From a candidate division WOR-3 bacterium (GTDB lineage: Bacteria > Hydrothermota > UBA3072 > B12-G15): DNA of 11,498 bases. Under the pieces are notes generated by a model. That model worked only from the letters and a program-made list of their open reading frames with translations. It searched no databases and was not told where the DNA came from. Each line of letters begins with the position of its first letter. Positions within the stretch are counted from its first letter, which is position 1. The stretch lies in contig CBFGJG010000056.1 in assembly GCA_965649055.1 (NCBI GenBank), forward strand, positions 1 through 11,498, written 5' to 3'. Below are positions 1-11,498 of the stretch, in pieces. Made by a program: the position numbers and the translations under genes.

Positions 1-211
1 ATCTCTCTCTCTCGAGAGGGAATTTTTATACTGATGAATGCATAATAAAGAATTCCAGAATAAAGATATATTTAACATTAAAGAGGATAAAGTTTATTTG
101 AAGAACCCTTTGCACCTTTGCCCAAAGGTGTGAAGGGGAGACATAAAAGGGCATAAAAGGGTTTGATTTTAGCAAAAGAAAAAAATTAAAAATTTAAATG
201 GAGGTAATTTT
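1..211 (+). repeat. Conserved cassette leader, copy 1 (5' part truncated by window edge)
   Basis: 1-152 is nearly identical to 4879-5032 (one substitution at 100, a 2-nt indel in the hairpin loop, one substitution after the hairpin). Similarity resumes at the A-rich tract and GGAGGT RBS (200-205) before ATG 212. Contains a local 10-bp tandem duplication CATAAAAGGG x2 (142-161). Confidence 0.95.
106..153 (+). promoter_or_regulatory. Conserved leader stem-loop (candidate cis-regulatory RNA element)
   Basis: CCCTTTGCACCTT pairs with AAGGTGTGAAGGG (13 bp, two G-U pairs on the + transcript). Arms are identical in all three leader copies. Loop GCCC is complementary to a downstream GGGC. Confidence 0.6.
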
Positions 212-1858: not shown

Positions 1859-2939
1859 TAAATTTTTGTTATTTATCTTTATTTTATTTCTAAATTGTTC
1901 TAAATACATTGAAAAAACCATAAATTTTAAGATTGCGAAAGAAATAGAAAGAGAAAGCCACTTTGAAGGCTTATATTTTCCTCAGTATATGGGAGGGAAT
2001 GATAGTTTTTTAATAATTTCAGGCATTCAGAGTCCTTCTCTTATGATAAATATAGAAAGAGATGAGGTTATAGAAACATTAGCGATTGATGGAGAAGGAC
2101 CAGGTGAAAAGAAGAACTGGGGGGATGCTCATTTCTATGGGAATAAACTACTTTGCGCTTATCATAGTAAGTTGATGGTTTATGAAAAAGAGAAGAATGG
2201 TTATAAACTAAACAAAGAGCTCGCTCTTCCTTTTAATGGATGGTATTTTAGGATTTTAAATGATACTTTATTAGTTTTTATGGTGATTGATAGATATGAA
2301 AATTTGTTTGTATTATTTAATTGGGATAATGGGAAGGTTCTATTAGAGTTTGGGGATGCACTTGTCTATCCTCAAAGAAGATGGAGACAAAAATTATTAC
2401 CTGATTTTCCTTATTATTTTTGTGTATATGATAGTTTTTTAATAGTATATGATTATTTTGTAAACAAATTTATTGTATATGACATTTTTAGCAAAAAAAA
2501 GATGATAATTTCTTGTCGTTCTATTAAGTATTGGAAAACTCCAAAAGTTAAATTTGATAAAAAACTACATAGATTTGTTACTCAGTGTCCCAAAGTAAAA
2601 ATAGCAACGAATGGGAAATATTTGTTTATAATGTTTGAAAAAGCTTGGTTATACAATTGGTCAATTTATAATAATAAGAAGATTAAGAATATGAGCCAAA
2701 AAGAAAAAGCAGATTTATATTCATCTTTATTTTATTATTTTATAGATGTTTATTTATTAGAAAATTATAAATATGTTGGGAGTATTTATCCATTCAACTC
2801 AAGCATCTTATTTAATGAAGATAAAAATATTCTTTATGAACCTGAATTGTTAATTGTTAATAAAGATAAAATAATAATTTTCCTTACTGATAATTGCAAA
2901 TTCAAAGTTAAATTACTACATATAAAAATTGACCTCTAA
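1851..2939 (+). CDS. Putative lipoprotein, 6-bladed beta-propeller-like, 362 aa
   Basis: N-terminus MNNK + hydrophobic stretch + FLNC (lipobox-like Cys16); GEGPGE motif typical of 6-bladed beta-propeller proteins; beta-strand-rich pattern; overlaps the upstream stop (translational coupling). Confidence 0.65.
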   Translation: MNNKFLLFIFILFLNCSKYIEKTINFKIAKEIERESHFEGLYFPQYMGGNDSFLIISGIQSPSLMINIERDEVIETLAIDGEGPGEKKNWGDAHFYGNKLLCAYHSKLMVYEKEKNGYKLNKELALPFNGWYFRILNDTLLVFMVIDRYENLFVLFNWDNGKVLLEFGDALVYPQRRWRQKLLPDFPYYFCVYDSFLIVYDYFVNKFIVYDIFSKKKMIISCRSIKYWKTPKVKFDKKLHRFVTQCPKVKIATNGKYLFIMFEKAWLYNWSIYNNKKIKNMSQKEKADLYSSLFYYFIDVYLLENYKYVGSIYPFNSSILFNEDKNILYEPELLIVNKDKIIIFLTDNCKFKVKLLHIKIDL

Positions 2940-4578
2940 TCCCTTTCTCCGTTTTCTTAGATTTCTTTCACCTTATTGGAGAAAGGGATTATTAGCATTT
3001 TTCTTTATGCTTGTTTCTATTCTCTTACAACTTCCAATGCCTTTCTTAACAAGATATATTCTTGATGATGTTATAAGGATGAGGAGTTTTAAGGTTCTTA
3101 ATATAATAGGGTTTTCTCTTATAGGTGTAATTATTATTCAAGGTATATCATTTTTTGTTGAAAGATATTTGCTTTCAACATTCAGGGCAAAGGTCTTGTT
3201 TGATTTGAAGGTTACATTATTAGATAAGATAGAGAGATTAAAATTATCATATTTTCATAATAAAGAGACAGGTTATCTTATGAGCAGGATTCAAGATGAT
3301 ACAAATCAGGTTCAGGGACTTCTTGCAGATACATTTATCTCATTTGTTCAAAATTTTCTCACATTCATAGTTGGGATATGTGCGACATTTTATTTACACT
3401 ATAAACTTGCAATAATATGTCTTTCAATATTGCCTTTATATGCTTTAACAACATATATATTTAATAAGAGGATAAGGGATTTGAGTTATGAATTAAGGGA
3501 GGCATTTGCGAAGGTATCAAAGGATTTACAGGAGTTGTTGTCAGGTATAATGATAATTAAGGCATTTACAGGAGAAAGATATGGGACATTAAGATTTATA
3601 AGGAGTTTGAGAGAAGGGATAAGGAAGACAGTTAAACTTGATATTACAGCAACTATATTTAATATTTTTTCAAATGTTATCTCATCAACAGGTCCAATAA
3701 TTTTGATATGGTATGGATGTTATGAGATAATGAAAGGGAGATTAACGATAGGCACACTTGTGGCGTTTAATTCATTTATCAGGTATCTATTTGCTCCCAC
3801 GCAAGCATTTATGCAGATGAATATTTCTATTCAGCAATCAATAGTTTCAATAAGGAGGATATTTGAGATAATGGATGAGGAGGAGGAAAGAGATAGAGGA
3901 ATAAAGATTGAAAGGATAGAAGGTAAAATTGAGTTTAAAAATGTTTATTTTTCTTATGATGGTATGAATGATATATTAAAGAACTTTTCATTGTTGATAT
4001 TTCCGGGTGAGAAGATAGGGGTAGTGGGAGAGAGTGGGATTGGTAAATCAACAATAGCAGGGTTAATTTTAAGGTTTTATGAACATAGGGAAGGAAAGAT
4101 TATGATAGATGGGATAGATATAAGGGATATTAATTTGAAATCATTGAGGGAAAGTATAAGTTATGTATCACAGGATATATTTTTGTTTTCAGATACGATA
4201 AGGGAGAATATAAGATTAGGTAAGAGAAATGCAACAGATATTGAGATAATAGAGGCTGCAAGGATATCAGGAGTTATGGATTTTGTGAAAAAGAAAGGGG
4301 GAGGTCTTGATACGAAGATAGGTGAAAGGGGGATAAGGCTTTCAGGTGGTGAGAGGCAGAGGATAGCGATAGCGAGGGCAGTATTAAAGAATGCACCTAT
4401 TGTGATACTTGATGAGGCAACGAGTAATCTTGATATAAAAAATGAGAAGAAGATAATAAGGCTTGCAATGGATATATTTAGGGGAAAGACGATGATAATT
4501 ATAACGCATAGAAAAACTCCATTAAATATGCTTGATAGGATAATAAAGATAGAAAATGGTAGTGCAAAAGAATTGTGA
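2929..4578 (+). CDS. ABC exporter, fused permease/ATPase (MdlB/MsbA-type) without a C39 peptidase domain, 549 aa
   Basis: N-terminal TM helices; Walker A GESGIGKST, Q-loop YVSQD, signature LSGGE, Walker B VILDE, H-loop ITHR. The TTG start is supported by alignment with the ATG of the remnant copy at 10699. Confidence 0.95.
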   Translation: MTSNPFLRFLRFLSPYWRKGLLAFFFMLVSILLQLPMPFLTRYILDDVIRMRSFKVLNIIGFSLIGVIIIQGISFFVERYLLSTFRAKVLFDLKVTLLDKIERLKLSYFHNKETGYLMSRIQDDTNQVQGLLADTFISFVQNFLTFIVGICATFYLHYKLAIICLSILPLYALTTYIFNKRIRDLSYELREAFAKVSKDLQELLSGIMIIKAFTGERYGTLRFIRSLREGIRKTVKLDITATIFNIFSNVISSTGPIILIWYGCYEIMKGRLTIGTLVAFNSFIRYLFAPTQAFMQMNISIQQSIVSIRRIFEIMDEEEERDRGIKIERIEGKIEFKNVYFSYDGMNDILKNFSLLIFPGEKIGVVGESGIGKSTIAGLILRFYEHREGKIMIDGIDIRDINLKSLRESISYVSQDIFLFSDTIRENIRLGKRNATDIEIIEAARISGVMDFVKKKGGGLDTKIGERGIRLSGGERQRIAIARAVLKNAPIVILDEATSNLDIKNEKKIIRLAMDIFRGKTMIIITHRKTPLNMLDRIIKIENGSAKEL

Positions 4579-4807
4579 TTTTTCTTGATTATTTTTATTA
4601 TATTGATAAAATAATTATATGTTTTTAATAATTTCTTTAACACTTCAAGATATAGATTCTCTTGCTTTGAAAAATGCTTCTGAGATAATAAACCTAAGGG
4701 AAAATCTTTATTCGCTTCAAGATGAATATAGAACTCTTTTTTCTCACTTTTTACAACCATTGATAATTCTTTATTTTTAAATATAGAAAATTTTTCAAAA
4801 AAAATCC

Positions 4808-4836
4808 TTGACAGGATTATATTTTTTATTTATAAA
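4808..4836 (+). promoter_or_regulatory. Sigma70-type promoter TTGACA-17 nt-TATAAA, with inverted repeat AATCCT-N4-AGGATT (4803-4818) over the -35 box
   Basis: Perfect -35 at 4808-4813, 17-nt spacer, 5/6 -10 at 4831-4836; lies at the 5' side of the repeated leader. Confidence 0.7.
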
Positions 4837-4983
4837 TAAAATATGCTTATGAGTTTCATCAAAAGCAGAAATAAATTAATCTCTCTCTCTCGAGAGGGAA
4901 TTTTTATACTGATGAATGCATAATAAAGAATTCCAGAATAAAGATATATTTAACATTAAAGAGGATAAAGTTTATTTAAAGAA

Positions 4984-5032
4984 CCCTTTGCACCTTCTTG
5001 CCCAAAGGTGTGAAGGGAAGACATAAAAGGGC
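4984..5032 (+). promoter_or_regulatory. Conserved leader stem-loop, copy 2
   Basis: CCCTTTGCACCTT-CTTGCCCA-AAGGTGTGAAGGG (4984-5017) with downstream GGGC (5029-5032). Confidence 0.6.
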
Positions 5033-5080
5033 TTGTGGAAGAGAAACGAAAAAATTAAAATTTGAAAATGGAGGTAAATT

Positions 5081-5323
5081 ATGAAAAAAATAAAATGTAT
5101 TATTATACTATTAATGTTAATTGGAATTATATGTAATTTATTTCTGACTTCGTCAGCAAATGAAATTCCATCGTTAGGTGATGGATTTGAATATCCACCA
5201 TATGAAGATGGAGGTGGTGAAGGGAATGTTCCAACTGGAACTAGATATTGGAGTGGATTTCCAGATAATCCTATATGGAACTGTGATTGTTATAACGTTG
5301 GTAATACTTGTTGGTGTGGATAA
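5081..5323 (+). CDS. Secreted Cys-rich peptide, 80 aa (Sec-type signal peptide; C-terminal CDC...CWCG)
   Basis: GGAGGT RBS; MKKIK + hydrophobic core + SSA cleavage-like site; acidic Gly/Pro-rich linker; WNCDCYNVGNTCWCG C-terminus. Confidence 0.88.
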   Translation: MKKIKCIIILLMLIGIICNLFLTSSANEIPSLGDGFEYPPYEDGGGEGNVPTGTRYWSGFPDNPIWNCDCYNVGNTCWCG

Positions 5324-5344
5324 AGGCGTTCTCGCCTTTATCCA
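5317..5344 (+). terminator. Perfect 12-bp hairpin overlapping the peptide stop codon
   Basis: TGGATAAAGGCG-TTCT-CGCCTTTATCCA followed by ATTTAT (weak U-tract). Confidence 0.7.
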
Positions 5345-5360
5345 ATTTATAAATTAATTT

Positions 5361-6362
5361 ATGATTTTGATTATTTTTTCACTTACTTTTGAAGAAATCT
5401 TTACACTTATAGATATTGATTCTCTGACTTCACAAATAATTTGCCATTATGGCCAAACACCAAGGATATATATATGGAAAGATAACTATATATTAGACTA
5501 TAATAATACTATGTGGTCAAAAGGTAAAGAAAAACTCATAGCAAATTTTGGGGATGGCCCTGATGAAATAACGAAAGGTTCTATGGTAAGACTTTATAAA
5601 GATTATTGTTACTTTCTTACTTCAAATGGTATTATGTCAATTTACAACTTAGAAAAAGATGAAATGGTGTTGAAAAGAATTATAAGAAATATTGGTATAA
5701 TTTTTGATTTTACCCTTGATTCAAGAGGGAACATTTTTATTTTTAGGCATAAGTCCTTATTCAGAGGTGGAAAACCTTGGTATGGTATTCAAAGGTTGAA
5801 GCCGGATGGGACACCTGAAAATAAAAATTTTCTTGAATTAGATGAGGAATACTTTGAATGGGTATTACAAATTGGGACTACAAGGGGGATGATTGAGATA
5901 CTTAATGATACATTATATTTTATAGAACCTCATAAACCTATTTTTTATAAATTTACTACAGATGGGAAATTGATAAAAAAATGTAAACTCAAAATTGAAA
6001 GATTTATTCCGCCAAAAGAAAAGTTTAAACCTCAAAGAATAGTTACAAATGATGAATGGTTTAAAAAAACTATAGAATGGGGAGAGACTTGGACACCACC
6101 TTTGAGGCTACTAAAGATACCACCTAAATATCTTCTAATATTTTATTTTGATAAAGGTGCATATATTGAAAAACCTAATGGTTTTATTGTTCTAATAGAT
6201 ACAAACGGAGATATATTAGATGAGATTAATATTGATAAACAACCTATTGGAATAGATGATAATGGAATTATATATTTTGCATCACCAAAACAGATAAACA
6301 AGAATGGCACTATGAAGATATTTAAATACAAGTTGAACATTGAGACGGGAAAAAATAAATAA
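5361..6362 (+). CDS. 6-bladed beta-propeller-like protein, 333 aa
   Basis: FGDGPDE motif near the N-terminus; NHL/propeller-like blades (FDFTLDSRGNIFIF, FYKFTTDGKLIK, LIDTNGDIL, IGIDDNGIIYF); short hydrophobic N-terminus. Confidence 0.7.
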   Translation: MILIIFSLTFEEIFTLIDIDSLTSQIICHYGQTPRIYIWKDNYILDYNNTMWSKGKEKLIANFGDGPDEITKGSMVRLYKDYCYFLTSNGIMSIYNLEKDEMVLKRIIRNIGIIFDFTLDSRGNIFIFRHKSLFRGGKPWYGIQRLKPDGTPENKNFLELDEEYFEWVLQIGTTRGMIEILNDTLYFIEPHKPIFYKFTTDGKLIKKCKLKIERFIPPKEKFKPQRIVTNDEWFKKTIEWGETWTPPLRLLKIPPKYLLIFYFDKGAYIEKPNGFIVLIDTNGDILDEINIDKQPIGIDDNGIIYFASPKQINKNGTMKIFKYKLNIETGKNK

Positions 6363-6379: not shown

Positions 6380-6979
6380 ATGAGAGCATTACGTATGATA
6401 AAAAAGAATATAATTTCTGAATTTCTTTTTTATTTAGTTGTCATTGTAATAATATTTTTTCAAAGCAAAATGATTATTTCAAGTAAAATGGAAGTATCTT
6501 TTTATAAAGTTCTTCTTTCTAATGTTCCTTTGAAGGAATATTCAATTATGAAGGAATATTCAATTATTTTAAGAGATACACTTTCAAATGATTTTGAATT
6601 TAATAATTTATATGGGAAAGGGATTTGTCTTATCTCAACAATATCACCGAAGGATTGTGGTAGTTGTCTTGAAGATGAGATAGAGTTTTTGAAGTATTTA
6701 AGAAAGAATATACCTGCATTACAGGTAATAGTTTTAATAGAGCATTATTATGGTTCAAATAAAGAGATATCGCCATGGATTAAAGACTATGGGATAGAAT
6801 ATCCATATTATTTTGATGTTGGTGGTATAGAGGATAGATGTTCATTAAAGAGTAGTTTATCTTGGAATTTTATAGTTAAAGATGGGAAGATAATAACGAG
6901 TTTTCTTCCACCGAAGGGGAGAATGGAAAAGAAGATATGTTTAAATTTATTAAGGGAATATGTGAGGATGAAGATATAA
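6380..6979 (+). CDS. Membrane-anchored thioredoxin-fold (TlpA/redoxin-like) CxxC protein, ~199 aa; exact start uncertain
   Basis: N-terminal TM helix; beta strand then DCGSC then helix (LEDEIEFLKYL); later YGIEYPYYFD and FIVKDGKI segments typical of TlpA/AhpC-like folds. Confidence 0.7.
   Translation: MRALRMIKKNIISEFLFYLVVIVIIFFQSKMIISSKMEVSFYKVLLSNVPLKEYSIMKEYSIILRDTLSNDFEFNNLYGKGICLISTISPKDCGSCLEDEIEFLKYLRKNIPALQVIVLIEHYYGSNKEISPWIKDYGIEYPYYFDVGGIEDRCSLKSSLSWNFIVKDGKIITSFLPPKGRMEKKICLNLLREYVRMKI
6531..6566 (+). repeat. In-frame 18-bp tandem duplication
   Basis: TGAAGGAATATTCAATTA x2, encoding KEYSIM-KEYSII. Confidence 0.95.
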
Positions 6980-7061
6980 ATAAAAAAAATCCTTTACTGG
7001 ATTCTATTTTTTTTATCAAAAGCAGGAATAAAATAAACTCTATCGAAAGGGAATTTTTATA

Positions 7062-7090
7062 TTGATAAAAGGATAAAAGATATATATAAT
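7062..7090 (+). promoter_or_regulatory. Candidate sigma70 promoter TTGATA-17 nt-TATAAT unique to leader copy 3
   Basis: TTGATA 7062-7067, 17-nt spacer, perfect TATAAT 7085-7090. AT-rich context raises the chance-match rate. Confidence 0.55.
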
Positions 7091-7119
7091 TTTAAAGAGG
7101 ATAAAATTTATTTGAAGAA

Positions 7120-7167
7120 CCCTTTGCACCTTCTTGCCCAAAGGTGTGAAGGGAAGACATAGGGCAA
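7120..7167 (+). promoter_or_regulatory. Conserved leader stem-loop, copy 3
   Basis: Stem 7120-7153 identical to copy 2; loop TTGCCC complementary to GGGCAA at 7162-7167. Confidence 0.6.
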
Positions 7168-7201
7168 AATAAATGAAGATAAAACCTTAAAAGGAGGAAA
7201 A

Positions 7202-7354
7202 ATGATAAATATATTAAATTTGTTAGAGGGTAAAATAAAGCCAGTTTGTGGATGTGGTTGTCCCTGTTGGTGTGGTGGCGTTATTAATGATTATGCAAAT
7301 GGTTATATGGACGGTGCTTGTGACGCTGGGCTTGCCTCTAATGAAGCTGCATAA
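7202..7354 (+). CDS. Cys-rich RiPP precursor peptide 3, 50 aa: MINILNLLEGKIKPVCGCGCPCWCGGVINDYANGYMDGACDAGLASNEAA
   Basis: Manual translation; not in the ORF track. AAGGAGG RBS; CxCxCxCxC plus a sixth Cys; directly upstream of the second rSAM/SPASM gene. Confidence 0.92.
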   Translation: MINILNLLEGKIKPVCGCGCPCWCGGVINDYANGYMDGACDAGLASNEAA

Positions 7355-7374: not shown

Positions 7375-7409
7375 TAATCCCGGGAAGACTAAAGTCCTTC
7401 CCGGGATTA
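7375..7409 (+). terminator. Perfect 13-bp hairpin between precursor 3 and maturase (no U-tract; likely stabiliser or attenuator)
   Basis: TAATCCCGGGAAG-ACTAAAGTC-CTTCCCGGGATTA. Confidence 0.7.
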
Positions 7410-7432: not shown

Positions 7433-8878
7433 ATGAATGTTAAGAAATTTTTTATAAATAATAGGTTTTTCGTTTATGACAGAAATACTAATTTTATTTT
7501 AGAAGTAGATGAGAGGTTGTATAATATTCTTGATGAAAAAATAGGTTTTAATGAAAAAATAAAACGCAAAATCAAAAGAGACAGAAGTTTGAGCGAAACT
7601 ATAAAAAATATTGAAAATATACAAAATCAATATGGATGTTTCAGACCATTGGAACTAAAAGGATTTAAGTTTGACGAAAAAATGAAAAAAGAAAATATAA
7701 ACAGAGTGGTTCTCAATATAACGGAGGAATGTAATCTCAGATGTAAATATTGCACTTATTCAGGTTTATATAATGGTCATAGAGTTCATACAAATAAATT
7801 TATGGATTGGGCTATTGCTCAAAAAAGCATTGAGTTCTTTTTGAAACATTGTGATAATAAAGAAAAGCAAGTCTTAGGTTTCTATGGAGGTGAACCTTTA
7901 TTAAATTTTGAGATAATTGAGGCATCGGTGCGTTTTATTAAAAATAAAAATGTAAGAAATTTAAATTTTTCAATAACAACAAATGGAACCTTGCTGAATA
8001 AAAAAATTATTAATTTTTTTGTTGAAAATGACTTTCAGGTTTTTATAAGTCTTGATGGTCCTAAAGATATAAATGATATATATAGAGTTTTTCAAAATTA
8101 TAAAGGTTCTTTTGATATTGTATATAGAAATGCTTTATTTATAAAGAAATTATATCCTGAATACTACAATAAAAAGGTTGGGTTTTCTGTGGTTATTCAT
8201 CCGCCGTATAGATGCGAAGAATTTTATAAATTTTTTACAGAAAATCCATTAGTTAAAGATAACATTCATATTTTTTCTTTTGTGAATCCATTTGGAACAA
8301 CTTTTTATAATAATTTTACAAAGGAAGAAATTAATGAGTATCTCCCTTTCTGGAATAAGATTAGGGAAAAATTTGTAAAAATGATGGTGAAAGAAGAATA
8401 TAATGATGAGATAAAAATTCTGTTTGAACTTTTTGGAAAAAGTGTTTATCAAATACATTTAATGCCAAAAGGGATAATCAAAGAAAAATATTTACATCCT
8501 GGTGGAATATGTTATCCTGGTTTTTATAAAACATTTGTTGGAACCTCAGGAAAGATTTATCCGTGTGAAAAACTTGGATATGTTTTGGAGATAGGAGATA
8601 TATTTGAAGGGATAAATGTTAATATGGTTAATAATATTATTAATGAATTCATAAGTATAAAAGAAGAATTATGCAAAGAATGTTGGGCTGTAAGGTTATG
8701 TAATCCATGCTTTTTAAGTGCAATTGAAGGTAACAAATTTTCAGTTAAAAGAAAAAAAGAATTTTGCAATATGAATAAAAAAAATATTGAAAAGAATCTT
8801 GAAACATATATTATGATAATGATGGATAATAAAGATGCTTTTGATAGTGAAAAGTTTAAGGTAAGTTTTACTCAATGA
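7433..8878 (+). CDS. Radical SAM/SPASM peptide maturase (CcpM-like), 481 aa
   Basis: CNLRCKYC, YGGEPLL, TTNGTLL, SLDGP; C-terminal GICYPG...YPCEK...CKECWAVRLCNPC...C; RRE-like N-terminus (FFVYDRNTNFIL). Divergent paralogue of 437-1858. Confidence 0.93.
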   Translation: MNVKKFFINNRFFVYDRNTNFILEVDERLYNILDEKIGFNEKIKRKIKRDRSLSETIKNIENIQNQYGCFRPLELKGFKFDEKMKKENINRVVLNITEECNLRCKYCTYSGLYNGHRVHTNKFMDWAIAQKSIEFFLKHCDNKEKQVLGFYGGEPLLNFEIIEASVRFIKNKNVRNLNFSITTNGTLLNKKIINFFVENDFQVFISLDGPKDINDIYRVFQNYKGSFDIVYRNALFIKKLYPEYYNKKVGFSVVIHPPYRCEEFYKFFTENPLVKDNIHIFSFVNPFGTTFYNNFTKEEINEYLPFWNKIREKFVKMMVKEEYNDEIKILFELFGKSVYQIHLMPKGIIKEKYLHPGGICYPGFYKTFVGTSGKIYPCEKLGYVLEIGDIFEGINVNMVNNIINEFISIKEELCKECWAVRLCNPCFLSAIEGNKFSVKRKKEFCNMNKKNIEKNLETYIMIMMDNKDAFDSEKFKVSFTQ

Positions 8879-8885
8879 AGATATT

Positions 8886-9764
8886 ATGATTTTACTATTC
8901 ATATTAAGCAAAATGATCCTTAACGAGAAGTTCATAGGAGTTATAAGTGATATTGAAGGATTTAAATTTGTGAAAATTATAGATGAAAATTTTTATTTCT
9001 ATTCCAAAGAGATGTTAAAAGTATTAATTTATAATAAAAATTTATTTAAAATTGGAGAAATAGATTTTAAAGAAGGTGATTGTCCTGAATGTGTAAAAAG
9101 GAGATTTAATAACATATTTATAGATACAGAAAATATAATAGTCTGTTCACCATTTCAAAAGAAGATAGTTTTATATAATTCAAACGGAATATTTAAAAAA
9201 ATAATAAATACACAGAACCTTCCATATTTTGTATTAAAGGATAGAGAGAGGATAATGACATATGAAATTAAAGAGTATAAAAGTTTTATTGCTTTTTATG
9301 ATTTGAATGGAAAATTTCTTAATAATAAAGAAATACCCCAAACAGATTTTACAAAAAAATATAATGTCTATGAAATCCCATCAGCAATTTGTTTTGATAA
9401 TAGTAGATTATTTATACCTGAAAGCTACCGATTTGGAATTTGGGAATACATGATTGAAAAGGATATAATAAAAAGATTTATAAAAACAAGAGATTTCTTT
9501 AAAAATCCTATAATAAAGAAGAGGGGGAGCTCTACAGGAGTTATAATTTTATCAACTATCAATAATATTTTTATCTATGATTCATTAATTGTAATATATG
9601 CAATTGGAACAAAATGTGGAAATTTATTGCTGCTTTGTAATAAAAAAGGTGAAGAATTATTATTATTAAAAAAATTGAAATACGATGATATTATAACAGA
9701 TGGGAGAAATATTTATGCAATTAAGTCAGATACTATTTATAGCCTTTCTCTTCTCCAAAAGTAG
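8886..9764 (+). CDS. 6-bladed beta-propeller-like protein, 292 aa
   Basis: Short hydrophobic N-terminus; repeated blade motifs (IVLYNSNGIFKK, IAFYDLNGKFLN, LCNKKGEEL); EGDCPEC at the position of the GxGPxE motif. Confidence 0.6.
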   Translation: MILLFILSKMILNEKFIGVISDIEGFKFVKIIDENFYFYSKEMLKVLIYNKNLFKIGEIDFKEGDCPECVKRRFNNIFIDTENIIVCSPFQKKIVLYNSNGIFKKIINTQNLPYFVLKDRERIMTYEIKEYKSFIAFYDLNGKFLNNKEIPQTDFTKKYNVYEIPSAICFDNSRLFIPESYRFGIWEYMIEKDIIKRFIKTRDFFKNPIIKKRGSSTGVIILSTINNIFIYDSLIVIYAIGTKCGNLLLLCNKKGEELLLLKKLKYDDIITDGRNIYAIKSDTIYSLSLLQK

Positions 9765-10569
9765 TGCTAAATTAGGACTCCCATATGATATTGAGAAAAT
9801 TAATAATTTTTATGTTGTTCTTAATGTGGAAAAAAAATTACTATTTCTTAAAAGAGGTTTATTCTCATTTAAAGTGATAAAAGAAGTTGATTTGTCAAAT
9901 ACTATATCTTCACAATCATTTTTTTTAAAGGTTGATAGCATAGTATATCTGGTAACAGGATTTAAAAATACGGATTTTTATTCTATCAATTTTGACAGTT
10001 TGGAATATGTTAATTCCGTTCCTTATAAAGTTACTGGTGGAATTTCAACAGATGACTATATAATTTTATTTGGAAATTGGAAGGGTAAATTTATTCATTT
10101 CTATACAAAAAAATTTTTATATAAAAATTCATTTTTGGTTTCTTTTAAAATCATGGACAGGATTTATTCTTTTTATTCCTGTGATACAATTTATTTTACT
10201 TCACCTGAAAAATTGATTATCTATAAATTTATTGATACTATGCTATTGGATAGTATAATTATAGATAGTATGAATTGCATATTAAGTGTAAAATACGGAA
10301 ATAAAGATATAGTATTTAAGATTACTGGTTTTACAGGTCTTGTCTGGAGTAAGGAATTTAGTATAGTTCCTTCTTTTTTTAAATATCCTGATTCAATTTC
10401 TAATTTTCTTTTTGATAATAATAAGAGTATATTATCAAATTCCTATTTATTTTTTAAAGATAAAACAAAAAAGATTGGAGATGGGAGAATAACGATAAAA
10501 CAAGTAAATAAAATTTATTTTATTTTAAAAAACAAGAAAATTGAAGTTTTTAATTTTAGAAAATTATGA
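9715..10569 (+). CDS. Putative exported beta-rich (propeller-like) hypothetical protein; start probably ATG 9715 rather than 9700
   Basis: GGAG at 9703-9706 precedes ATG 9715; MQLSQILFIAFLFSKSSA resembles a signal peptide; blade-like FIHFYTKKFLYKNSF and DTIYFTSPEKLIIYKF, the latter resembling DTLYFIEPHKPIFYKF in 5361-6362. Confidence 0.55.
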   Translation: MQLSQILFIAFLFSKSSAKLGLPYDIEKINNFYVVLNVEKKLLFLKRGLFSFKVIKEVDLSNTISSQSFFLKVDSIVYLVTGFKNTDFYSINFDSLEYVNSVPYKVTGGISTDDYIILFGNWKGKFIHFYTKKFLYKNSFLVSFKIMDRIYSFYSCDTIYFTSPEKLIIYKFIDTMLLDSIIIDSMNCILSVKYGNKDIVFKITGFTGLVWSKEFSIVPSFFKYPDSISNFLFDNNKSILSNSYLFFKDKTKKIGDGRITIKQVNKIYFILKNKKIEVFNFRKL

Positions 10570-10706: not shown

Positions 10707-10786
10707 TAATCTTCTTTTCCGTTTTTTTAGATTTTTTTCACCTTATTGGAGAAAGGATTATTAGCATTTTTCTTTATGCTTGTTTC
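10699..10786 (+). pseudogene. 5' remnant of the ABC exporter (frameshifted, rest deleted)
   Basis: Aligns with 2929-3017. MNNNLLFRFFRFFSPYWRK vs MTSNPFLRFLRFLSPYWRK; a 1-nt deletion (AAGGATT vs AAGGGATT) gives TAG at 10762-10764. Confidence 0.92.
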
Positions 10787-10794
10787 ATTTATAT

Positions 10795-10844
10795 CCATTG
10801 ATAATTCTATATTTCTTGAATATAAAAATTTTCAAAAAAAGTCC
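10795..10844 (+). repeat. Start of a fourth leader/promoter copy, cut by the IS
   Basis: CCATTGATAATTCT...AATAT...AAAATTTTCAAAAAAAGTCC matches 4757-4807; homology ends at the position of TTGACA. Confidence 0.8.
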
Positions 10845-11498
10845 TGTTATTTCTATAATATATGTCATATGTTTTTACTATAAAATATGTCACATTGTTT
10901 TCTAAACATAAGTTCTTTCCTTCAATATTTCTTCTATTCTTCTTTCTTTCCTTATCATTTCATTATTTTCTGATATCTTTGTTTCAAGTATTACTTCTCC
11001 ATTATAAAGTATCCATACTTTATTCTCTTTTGATATCCTCAACTCAACAATAGCCCTTGCAAAGTTTAATTTCTTTCCTGTCGGATTAAGTTGTATCTTT
11101 TCCTTAAATATGCTTATTGTATTATCCTTGTTTACTCTCCTATAATATCTCTTAGTAAATATTAAATCAAGATCTTTCTTTCCTATATCCCTGTATACCG
11201 AACCCTCTACTTTATGGGAATATTTCAAATTATACCAGGGAATAAACTCTTCTACAAGATATTTATTCGCTTCTTCATAGTCCTTTATCTTCCTTATCCA
11301 CATCTCGTTTATTAGTCTGTCTTGAAAAACTCCAAATAGCCTTTCTATTCTTCCTTTCGCTTGCGGTGAATTCGCTGTTATCAATGTTATTCCTAATTCT
11401 TCAAGTGCTTTCTGTATATTCGTGTCCTCTTGTTCCTCGCTTACATCGTAATGTATACCTCCAATCCTTGTCGTCTTAAAATGTGATGCCCTGTCCAC
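10845..11498 (-). mobile_element. IS1202-like (ISNCY; IS481-related) insertion sequence, right end, partial
   Basis: End starts with TGT at 10845 exactly where leader homology stops; two ~25-bp imperfect direct repeats (TGTTATTTCTATAATATATGTCA at 10845, TGTTTTTACTATAAAATATGTCA at 10870) adjacent to the transposase stop. Confidence 0.8.
10902..11498 (-). CDS. DDE transposase, IS1202-like (ISNCY), C-terminal part; N-terminus lies outside the window
   Basis: ALEELGITLITANSPQAKGRIERLFGVFQDRL integrase-core motif and RRVNKDNTISI C-terminal motif; ORF is open at the window edge. Confidence 0.9.
   Translation of the reverse strand: MDRASHFKTTRIGGIHYDVSEEQEDTNIQKALEELGITLITANSPQAKGRIERLFGVFQDRLINEMWIRKIKDYEEANKYLVEEFIPWYNLKYSHKVEGSVYRDIGKKDLDLIFTKRYYRRVNKDNTISIFKEKIQLNPTGKKLNFARAIVELRISKENKVWILYNGEVILETKISENNEMIRKERRIEEILKERTYV

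Follow-up and report, generated by a model that had tools for sequence, protein, structure and literature searches.

The stabilizer of the aprE leader consists of a stem-loop together with a ribosome site, and protective stems of the ompA and papA type must sit at the extreme 5′ end of the message. According to PMC3997798, the 5′ leaders of ermC, atpE and cryIIIA stabilize whole messages without translation, and leaders of this kind protect the message through a strong Shine–Dalgarno (SD) sequence that lacks a start codon, through occlusion of the 5′ end, or through both. The leader that we describe here resembles STAB-SD of Bacillus thuringiensis cry3A and the aprE, ermC and atpE leaders in that its SD lies far from the real start. 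STAB-SD-type elements also share with it an SD without a usable start codon, a stem-loop, and a position ahead of very highly expressed secreted products. It departs from STAB-SD in its fixed 13–15-nt geometry of box and stem and in being repeated 13 times in one genome, a genome in which we found no RNase J, the enzyme that STAB-SD-type stabilizers block. The 5′-terminal stem-loops that act against RNase E in Escherichia coli ompA and papA offer a further likeness, since they too are stable stems in a 5′ untranslated region and the present genome also encodes an RNase E/G homolog.

Small hairpins in long leaders are likewise found in the LoaP-dependent dfn and mln operons and at the UpxY-associated pause sites of Bacteroides, in secondary-metabolite or surface-product operons with terminator-like hairpins further downstream, an arrangement that the present leader shares. 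The LoaP hairpin carries a nearly identical UNCG tetraloop across its targets (PMC12691694), whereas both loops and stems vary here.

Putative mobile promoters, a descriptive class rather than a mechanism, form another point of comparison. They were reportedly described by Matus-Garcia, Nijveen and van Passel in 2012. Like the present leader, they show at least 80% identity over at least 50 nt ahead of non-homologous genes, and some groups bear RNA motifs (PMC3575422). The cassette described below goes beyond them in spanning the distance from promoter to start codon and in containing a covarying stem, a decoy ribosome site and a dinucleotide repeat. A hairpin of this kind is by itself an ordinary element, whose function we infer here; what is new is the previously undescribed, lineage-restricted cassette that contains it.

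Results

The stretch analyzed, hereafter the window, is a whole contig of 11,498 nt from a 2.08-Mb genome in 85 contigs; the only sequencing run found to contain part of the window (0.26 of its words), a DNA run, is labeled as a hot-spring metagenome, and no RNA run was found to contain the locus. Three copies of a 13-bp stem, CCCTTTGCACCTT/AAGGTGTGAAGGG, lie on the forward strand at 106–137, 4984–5017 and 7120–7153, with the same letters in each. Copy 1 folds with 14 bp and a GCCC tetraloop, and copies 2 and 3 fold with 13 bp and an 8-nt loop. Two of the pairs depart from Watson-Crick, as U-G and G-U on the forward strand, where the stems fold at −18.4 to −19.3 kcal/mol at 37 °C; folding of the reverse strand leaves the stem interrupted. 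In copy 3 the stem persists amid deletions of 17 and 25 nt on its 5′ side and 4 nt on its 3′ side. No U-tract follows the stem in any of the three copies, and a GGGC stands 11, 11 and 8 nt past it (149–152, 5029–5032 and 7162–7165). The three identical stems, their G-U positions, the deletions around copy 3, the GGGC and the lack of a U-tract had been picked out in an earlier, sequence-only reading of the window, and each was borne out. The hairpin is 56% G+C, in leaders of 25–30% and a genome of 31.6%. Perfect hairpins of at least 13 bp with at least six G-C pairs occur at 29 loci in the genome, seven of which belong to the leader-hairpin family, and at none in a block-shuffled genome, the forward strand being the one scanned.

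Each hairpin lies 48–74 nt ahead of the start codon of a small Cys-rich open reading frame (ORF) on the same strand. The precursor-like ORF A (57 aa, 212–385) is followed by a terminator-like hairpin with a TTTT tail at about 391–416 and by a CcpM-like radical SAM gene (437–1858). ORF B (80 aa, 5081–5323) has a signal-peptide-like N-terminus and is followed by a hairpin without a TTTT tail (5325–5341). The precursor-like ORF C (50 aa, 7202–7354) is followed by another hairpin without a TTTT tail (7375–7409) and by a second CcpM-like gene (7433–8878). Both radical SAM proteins resemble the Cys-rich-peptide maturase CcpM, with scores below the model cut-off. The strong hairpins behind the small Cys-rich ORFs fit the usual attenuation between precursor and enzyme in peptide natural-product operons.

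Five further ORFs of the three operons, at 1851–2939, 5361–6362, 6380–6979, 8886–9764 and 9700–10569, have no Pfam or NCBIfam match and no BLASTP similarity to one another. Behind the third operon, positions 10707–10840 are 75–97% identical to 2937–3022 and 4750–4802, repeating the opening ~85 nt of the ABC-transporter gene region together with sequence past that gene; the segment has the look of a second transporter gene that has lost its interior. It is followed by an ISNCY-type transposase fragment at 10902–11498 on the reverse strand.

The hairpin is one part of a larger promoter-plus-leader cassette of ~200–280 nt that has not been described previously. Copy 2, which is complete (4797–5080, forward strand), shows the full order of elements. 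A near-consensus, promoter-like TTGACA-16/17-TATAAA site comes first (TTGACA at 4808–4813, TATAAA at 4831–4836), followed ~7 nt past the −10 by an ATG (at 4843, opening a 26-codon frame, 4843–4923) and then by a dinucleotide repeat, here (TC)6 at 4880–4891. An AAGATAT-like box (4941–4947), an SD-like box (4960–4976) and the hairpin come next. Past the hairpin, an A-rich tail leads through an A/U-rich spacer of 33–74 nt to a real GGAGG (5070–5074 in this copy) and the start codon. Copy 1 (1–211, forward strand) is cut by the contig start inside its (TC)6 run (2–13) and carries AAGATAT at 63–69, the SD-like box at 82–98 and the real SD at 200–204. Copy 3 (6982–7201, forward strand) has had its upstream −10/ATG part deleted and possesses its own near-consensus TTGATA-17-TATAAT site (7062–7090), with AAGATAT at 7077–7083, the SD-like box at 7096–7112 and the real SD at 7193–7197. 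Among the copies that can be judged, copy 3 alone lacks the TTGACA-16/17-TATAAA site, its −10 having fallen to the 25-nt deletion.

The SD-like box reads [AG]GAG[GA]-N5-RTT, with ATT or GTT in place of ATG (AGAGG-N5-GTT in copy 1), an imitation of the cassettes' own true ribosome site that offers no start codon; the 3′ end of the 16S rRNA bears CCTCCT. A script found the box in 15 of the 17 copies known from this and related genomes, and C81a, which it missed, still carries the box on inspection. In the 15 copies the base of the hairpin lies 13–15 nt past the RTT triplet, and a conserved AARUUURUU tract stands just 5′ of the stem. Frames read from the RTT run for 2–32 codons and are not conserved. 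Those opened by the promoter-proximal ATG run for 11–45 codons, also without conservation of length, pass through the repeat (LSLSLS or HTHTHT) and stop well 5′ of the hairpin. An upstream ORF through the hairpin was rejected on these frame lengths, as was a sigma-54 or Bacteroidota-type promoter inside the stem, for which spacings do not fit and motifs are not conserved by eye.

The repeat unit is (TC)n in this genome and in the related genome G002 and (CA)n, at the same place, in G001 and G003; the (TC)n run varies among copies from four to nine units, as counted by eye. Repeats were seen at 2–13 and 4880–4891 of the window, on contigs C20, C32, C33, C34, C70 and C81 of the same genome, and at loci L054, L055 and L073. 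The tract, placed ahead of genes for surface or secreted products, looks like a hypermutable phase-variation tract. As a separate observation, the ATG lies ~7 nt past the −10 in every complete cassette, as if it opened a leaderless mini-frame from the first base of the transcript.

A genome-wide scan for strong hairpins returned stems with a CCCTTTGCA...TGCAAAGGG core ahead of other genes. Within this genome, a core-motif search gave 10 copies, nhmmer gave the same 10 cassettes plus one fragment at a contig end, and a low-stringency search gave, beyond the three window copies, a fourth, diverged one on contig C17. A covariance model built on the box-plus-hairpin region (R1) added copies at C81:4883-4974 and C11:17871-17963, whose stems are of entirely different sequence, as confirmed by eye, and a weaker copy on C48 (26.9 bits). 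The genome thus holds 13 cassette copies, and three other genomes of the family hold one or two each (G002 one, G003 two, G001 one at 32.6 bits); the G001 copy precedes an ortholog of the gene behind the C17 cassette. The description of the stem as invariant, made in the sequence-only reading, therefore holds for the three window copies and fails for the ten further copies in the same genome, which vary.

Outside the family, the 20 genomes of the sister family yielded no credible copy, and the other 147 genomes sampled from the phylum yielded none under stricter filters that weak copies could escape. The stem pattern with up to three mismatches was absent from the three other family genomes, and a relaxed exact pattern was absent from 271 other genomes of the phylum. 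Querying 272 phylum genomes with the copy-3 leader by BLAST returned short, A+T-rich chance matches only. Among metagenome contigs, from which records of this or close genomes were possibly excluded, a hairpin-independent box pattern returned no stretch and a 5′-arm pattern returned 11 stretches, none with the hairpin. Scanning species genomes with the radical SAM protein brought up no relative. Eleven extra box-pattern sites in the four family genomes were set aside, all lacking the hairpin and most lying in coding sequence, as were weak model matches in G176, G051, G233 and G244 and on contig C6. On this distribution, the cassette presents itself as an undescribed, lineage-restricted (family-specific) leader motif. 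A hairpin resembling the leader stem, CCCCTTTGTA...TACAAAGGGG, was seen in another family of the phylum (L075, G051:C10:31451-31509); it lacks the cassette context and is probably intragenic.

Other cassettes precede type IX secretion-tail proteins, lipoproteins, and Ig/PKD and β-propeller proteins, and the cassette has been copied ahead of unrelated genes for exported products. The gene behind the cassette at G000:C81:111-204 reads MKKNIDFSIDYINIWL*, with one extra A relative to its paralogs on C20 and C32, which points either to a frameshift in this copy or to a misassembled A-run. Because the leaders of copies 1–3 are 80–99% identical while the two maturases share 32% identity and the precursors are mutually unrelated, the cassette has evidently been propagated or homogenized independently of its genes. 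It also shows what defines putative mobile promoters, namely at least 80% identity over at least 50 nt ahead of non-paralogous genes in one genome.

A dispersed palindrome of the REP/MITE type was rejected, as the hairpin occurs only within the cassette and at one fixed place. A repeat of ~300 nt with inverted ends of ~26 nt (GGGAAGATCAGGGACATGATGGTACA ... TGTACCACCATGTGCATGATCTTTTCC) was seen directly 5′ of two cassettes, upstream of the promoter-like site, at about 480–830 of G000:C17 (reverse strand) and about 17560–17900 of C34 (forward strand). Its right end alone occurs at both C81 copies, at C70, at C48 and at the C34 contig end. This repeat could be a MITE-like vehicle that spreads the cassette.

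To examine the structure itself, we aligned 15 copies, comprising 12 distinct hairpins, from the four related genomes. This alignment was fitted to the structure of the model, which favors pairing, and its C56 and C17 rows are out of register at the two upper pairs; within it, paired cells make up 91.7% of the total. In keeping with the RNA-level structure that the sequence-only reading had proposed, pairs covary: 10 of the 13 change on both sides (28 cells), and none of 500 shuffles matches the alignment on any measure. Sliding the partners by 1–3 columns leaves at most 51.3% of cells paired. The eight core pairs comprise 120 cells, of which 110 are Watson-Crick and 10 are G-U, with no A-C and no mismatched cell. 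Among the ten close copies of this genome alone, covariation is weak (three pairs with changes on both sides, equaled by 46 of 500 shuffles). At the orthologous C17 and G001 loci, pairing is kept although the stems have almost no sequence in common. The loops measure 4–8 nt (GCCC, CTTGCCCA, ATAAGTG, TAGAT, ATTGA, ATTACA, TTTC and others), one copy has a bulged A, and the 5′ arm is mostly pyrimidine-rich and the 3′ arm purine-rich. At 70 °C, the 15 copies parsed whole have computed stem free energies of −4.7 to −9.3 kcal/mol. Since pairing is kept through sequence change and the core admits G-U but no A-C, the hairpin is very probably a sense-strand RNA stem-loop of 9–14 bp that is folded at hot-spring temperature, and the sole conserved secondary structure of the cassette. 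RNAalifold agrees, predicting no helix other than this hairpin in 11 complete leaders.

These data bear directly on whether the inverted repeat acts as DNA, either as an operator for a dimeric regulator downstream of the promoter or as a cruciform. A near-perfect inverted repeat common to co-located operons, with the 5′ arm CCCTTTGCA identical in 10 copies, is what such an element might look like. However, the spacing of the arms varies with the 4–8-nt loops and the bulge, which a dimeric DNA-binding protein would not tolerate, and other copies in the same genome have wholly different arms, giving at least five unrelated stem sequences. The departures in the core are all G-U on the sense strand; they would become A-C mismatches on the other strand, which disfavors both a structure there and a DNA cruciform. 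The window also contains no recognized regulator gene. We consider a DNA-level role very unlikely, and a palindromic operator in particular was rejected for want of a fixed half-site sequence and spacing.

The same evidence addresses whether the hairpin is a passenger of a duplicated or mobile promoter cassette, with no role of its own and with its identity in the window due to recent copying or gene conversion. Over a stretch of 118 nt, copies 1 and 2 agree at 99% of positions, so their identity is uninformative about selection. The cassette precedes unrelated genes, as putative mobile promoters do (PMC3575422), several copies adjoin the shared repeat with inverted ends, and copy number is 13 here against one or two in relatives. 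Against this stand the pairing that survives two-sided changes in three genera and at the near-unrelated C17 and G001 stems, the fixed spacing to the SD-like box, and the excess of G-U over A-C in the core. Together these make a mere passenger quite improbable.

Beyond the stem, the sequence-only reading had proposed that the loop GCCC pairs with the downstream GGGC in an H-type pseudoknot or an alternative-fold switch, possibly one that senses a ligand such as SAM. In its favor, the complementarity in the three window copies (4, 4 and 6 nt) survives the 4-nt deletion in copy 3, and GGGC is rare in an A+T-rich leader. In the other 14 members, however, the longest complement between loop and downstream sequence is 0–4 nt, a length reached by 43–100% of shuffles, so that the feature is confined to 3 of 17 members and stands at chance level elsewhere. 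The diverged C17 copy has a different loop, GTCC as parsed (CGTCC with the closing U-G pair opened), with GGGA downstream, and the 4-nt loop with which copy 1 folds is sterically poor for a pseudoknot. No second helix is predicted, and no riboswitch or pseudoknot family of Rfam matches. Only a simple stem-loop is conserved, with loop and stem sequences that vary, which speaks against ligand sensing. We therefore regard this reading as highly improbable.

At the gathering thresholds of Rfam 15, the whole window gave no match, and the hairpin is thus unrecognized by Rfam, as had been supposed. Scans by E-value of five other cassette loci and of 4780–5100 returned snoRNA, miRNA and sRNA noise at 13.8–23 bits on the reverse strand. 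The earlier proposal of an unrecognized cis-acting structure in a long 5′ leader accordingly stands at the level of RNA structure, stripped of its pseudoknot, its fold switch and its SAM sensing, with the processing site and the antitermination signal that it also named still among the candidate roles.

Several other candidate roles were rejected. An anti-SD switch would require the 5′ arm to pair with the real ribosome site at −2.5 to −11 kcal/mol in competition with a stem of −13 to −22 kcal/mol, and only in G002 and C17 do cognate duplexes outdo non-cognate ones. An intrinsic (Rho-independent) terminator or attenuator does not suit the A-rich tails (GAGACATAAA, GAAATATAT and the like), which contain no U-tract; the hairpins that follow genes in this genome mostly carry T-runs in or past the 3′ arm. 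A CsrA site was discounted, as no CsrA gene was found in the genome.

Discussion

The reading that we favor, with a rough probability of 35–40%, is that the hairpin and the decoy ribosome site form a 5′ mRNA-stabilizing or processing module. The geometry of the SD-like box and the stem points there, as does the AARUUURUU tract just 5′ of the stem, which presumably resembles an RNase E-type cleavage context. In such a module, a 30S subunit would dock on the start-less SD, with the stem lying on the side where mRNA enters it; or else a cut within the AARUUURUU tract would leave the stem near a new 5′ end. The downstream message would then be shielded from the 5′-end-dependent endonucleases RNase Y and RNase E/G, both encoded here with model scores above their cut-offs, and precursor peptides and secreted proteins would be expressed at a high, uniform level. 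As in stabilizers of the STAB-SD type, the leader has an SD-like sequence with neither an initiation codon nor an ORF.

Several points weigh against this assignment. A transcript begun at the upstream promoter-like site would carry the hairpin ~140 nt in from its 5′ end, and for protection by a 5′ stem in E. coli, the stem has to be nearly terminal. The best-studied SD-type stabilizers block the exonuclease RNase J, which was not found here (best match 44.6 bits against a 400-bit cut-off, in a genome that is 93.8% complete). Finally, the polarity of the arms, pyrimidine-rich then purine-rich, is not something that a purely structural role explains.

A post-transcriptional switch that is phase-variable would draw on the same parts differently and would be a new type of expression control for the secretome of an uncultured thermophile lineage. 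The start codon at the 5′ end would open a mini-frame containing the hypermutable repeat, (TC)n in two genera and (CA)n in the rest, whose length would set ribosome entry, and the decoy site and hairpin would decide the fate of the message, bringing bacteriocin-like peptides and type IX-secreted proteins under control. To such a switch we assign a low likelihood.

The main rival to a stabilizing or processing module acts during transcription. The nascent stem-loop might pause RNA polymerase, as in his, trp or Bacteroides capsule leaders, or it might load an elongation or antitermination factor, a LoaP-like protein binding so that polymerase reads through the hairpins behind the precursor genes. 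The position of the hairpin is conserved while its sequence varies, the hairpins at 391–416 and 7375–7409 must be read through to reach the maturase genes, and several copies have a U-run 8–12 nt past the stem. There is also precedent in two studies of such leaders: a small leader hairpin is needed for LoaP antitermination of antibiotic operons (PMC12691694), and NusA-enhanced pause hairpins in capsule leaders recruit NusG paralogs (PMC11685472). However, the three window copies have no U-run past the stem, and what follows most other cassettes is a single large gene with no obvious terminator inside it. Because the loops are non-UNCG and vary widely, and because stems differ among copies within one genome, a single sequence-specific binder is unlikely. 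Nor was a candidate factor found: no NusG paralog was recognized in the cluster, and the NusG NGN-domain model gave no match in the genome, missing even the housekeeping nusG. On balance we judge a pausing or factor-loading role unlikely, albeit the least so of the alternatives.

Whichever role applies, the cassette stands ahead of at least 13 operons of one lineage, three peptide-natural-product loci among them. It is a clean example of promoter-and-leader reuse that propagates a structured RNA and not a promoter alone, and its hairpin is a candidate motif missing from RNA family libraries. If the module truly sets mRNA lifetime or read-through, it would amount to a compact, portable and heat-stable expression leader, one that would help in expressing such clusters and shed light on the co-ordination of secreted products in uncultured hot-spring bacteria.
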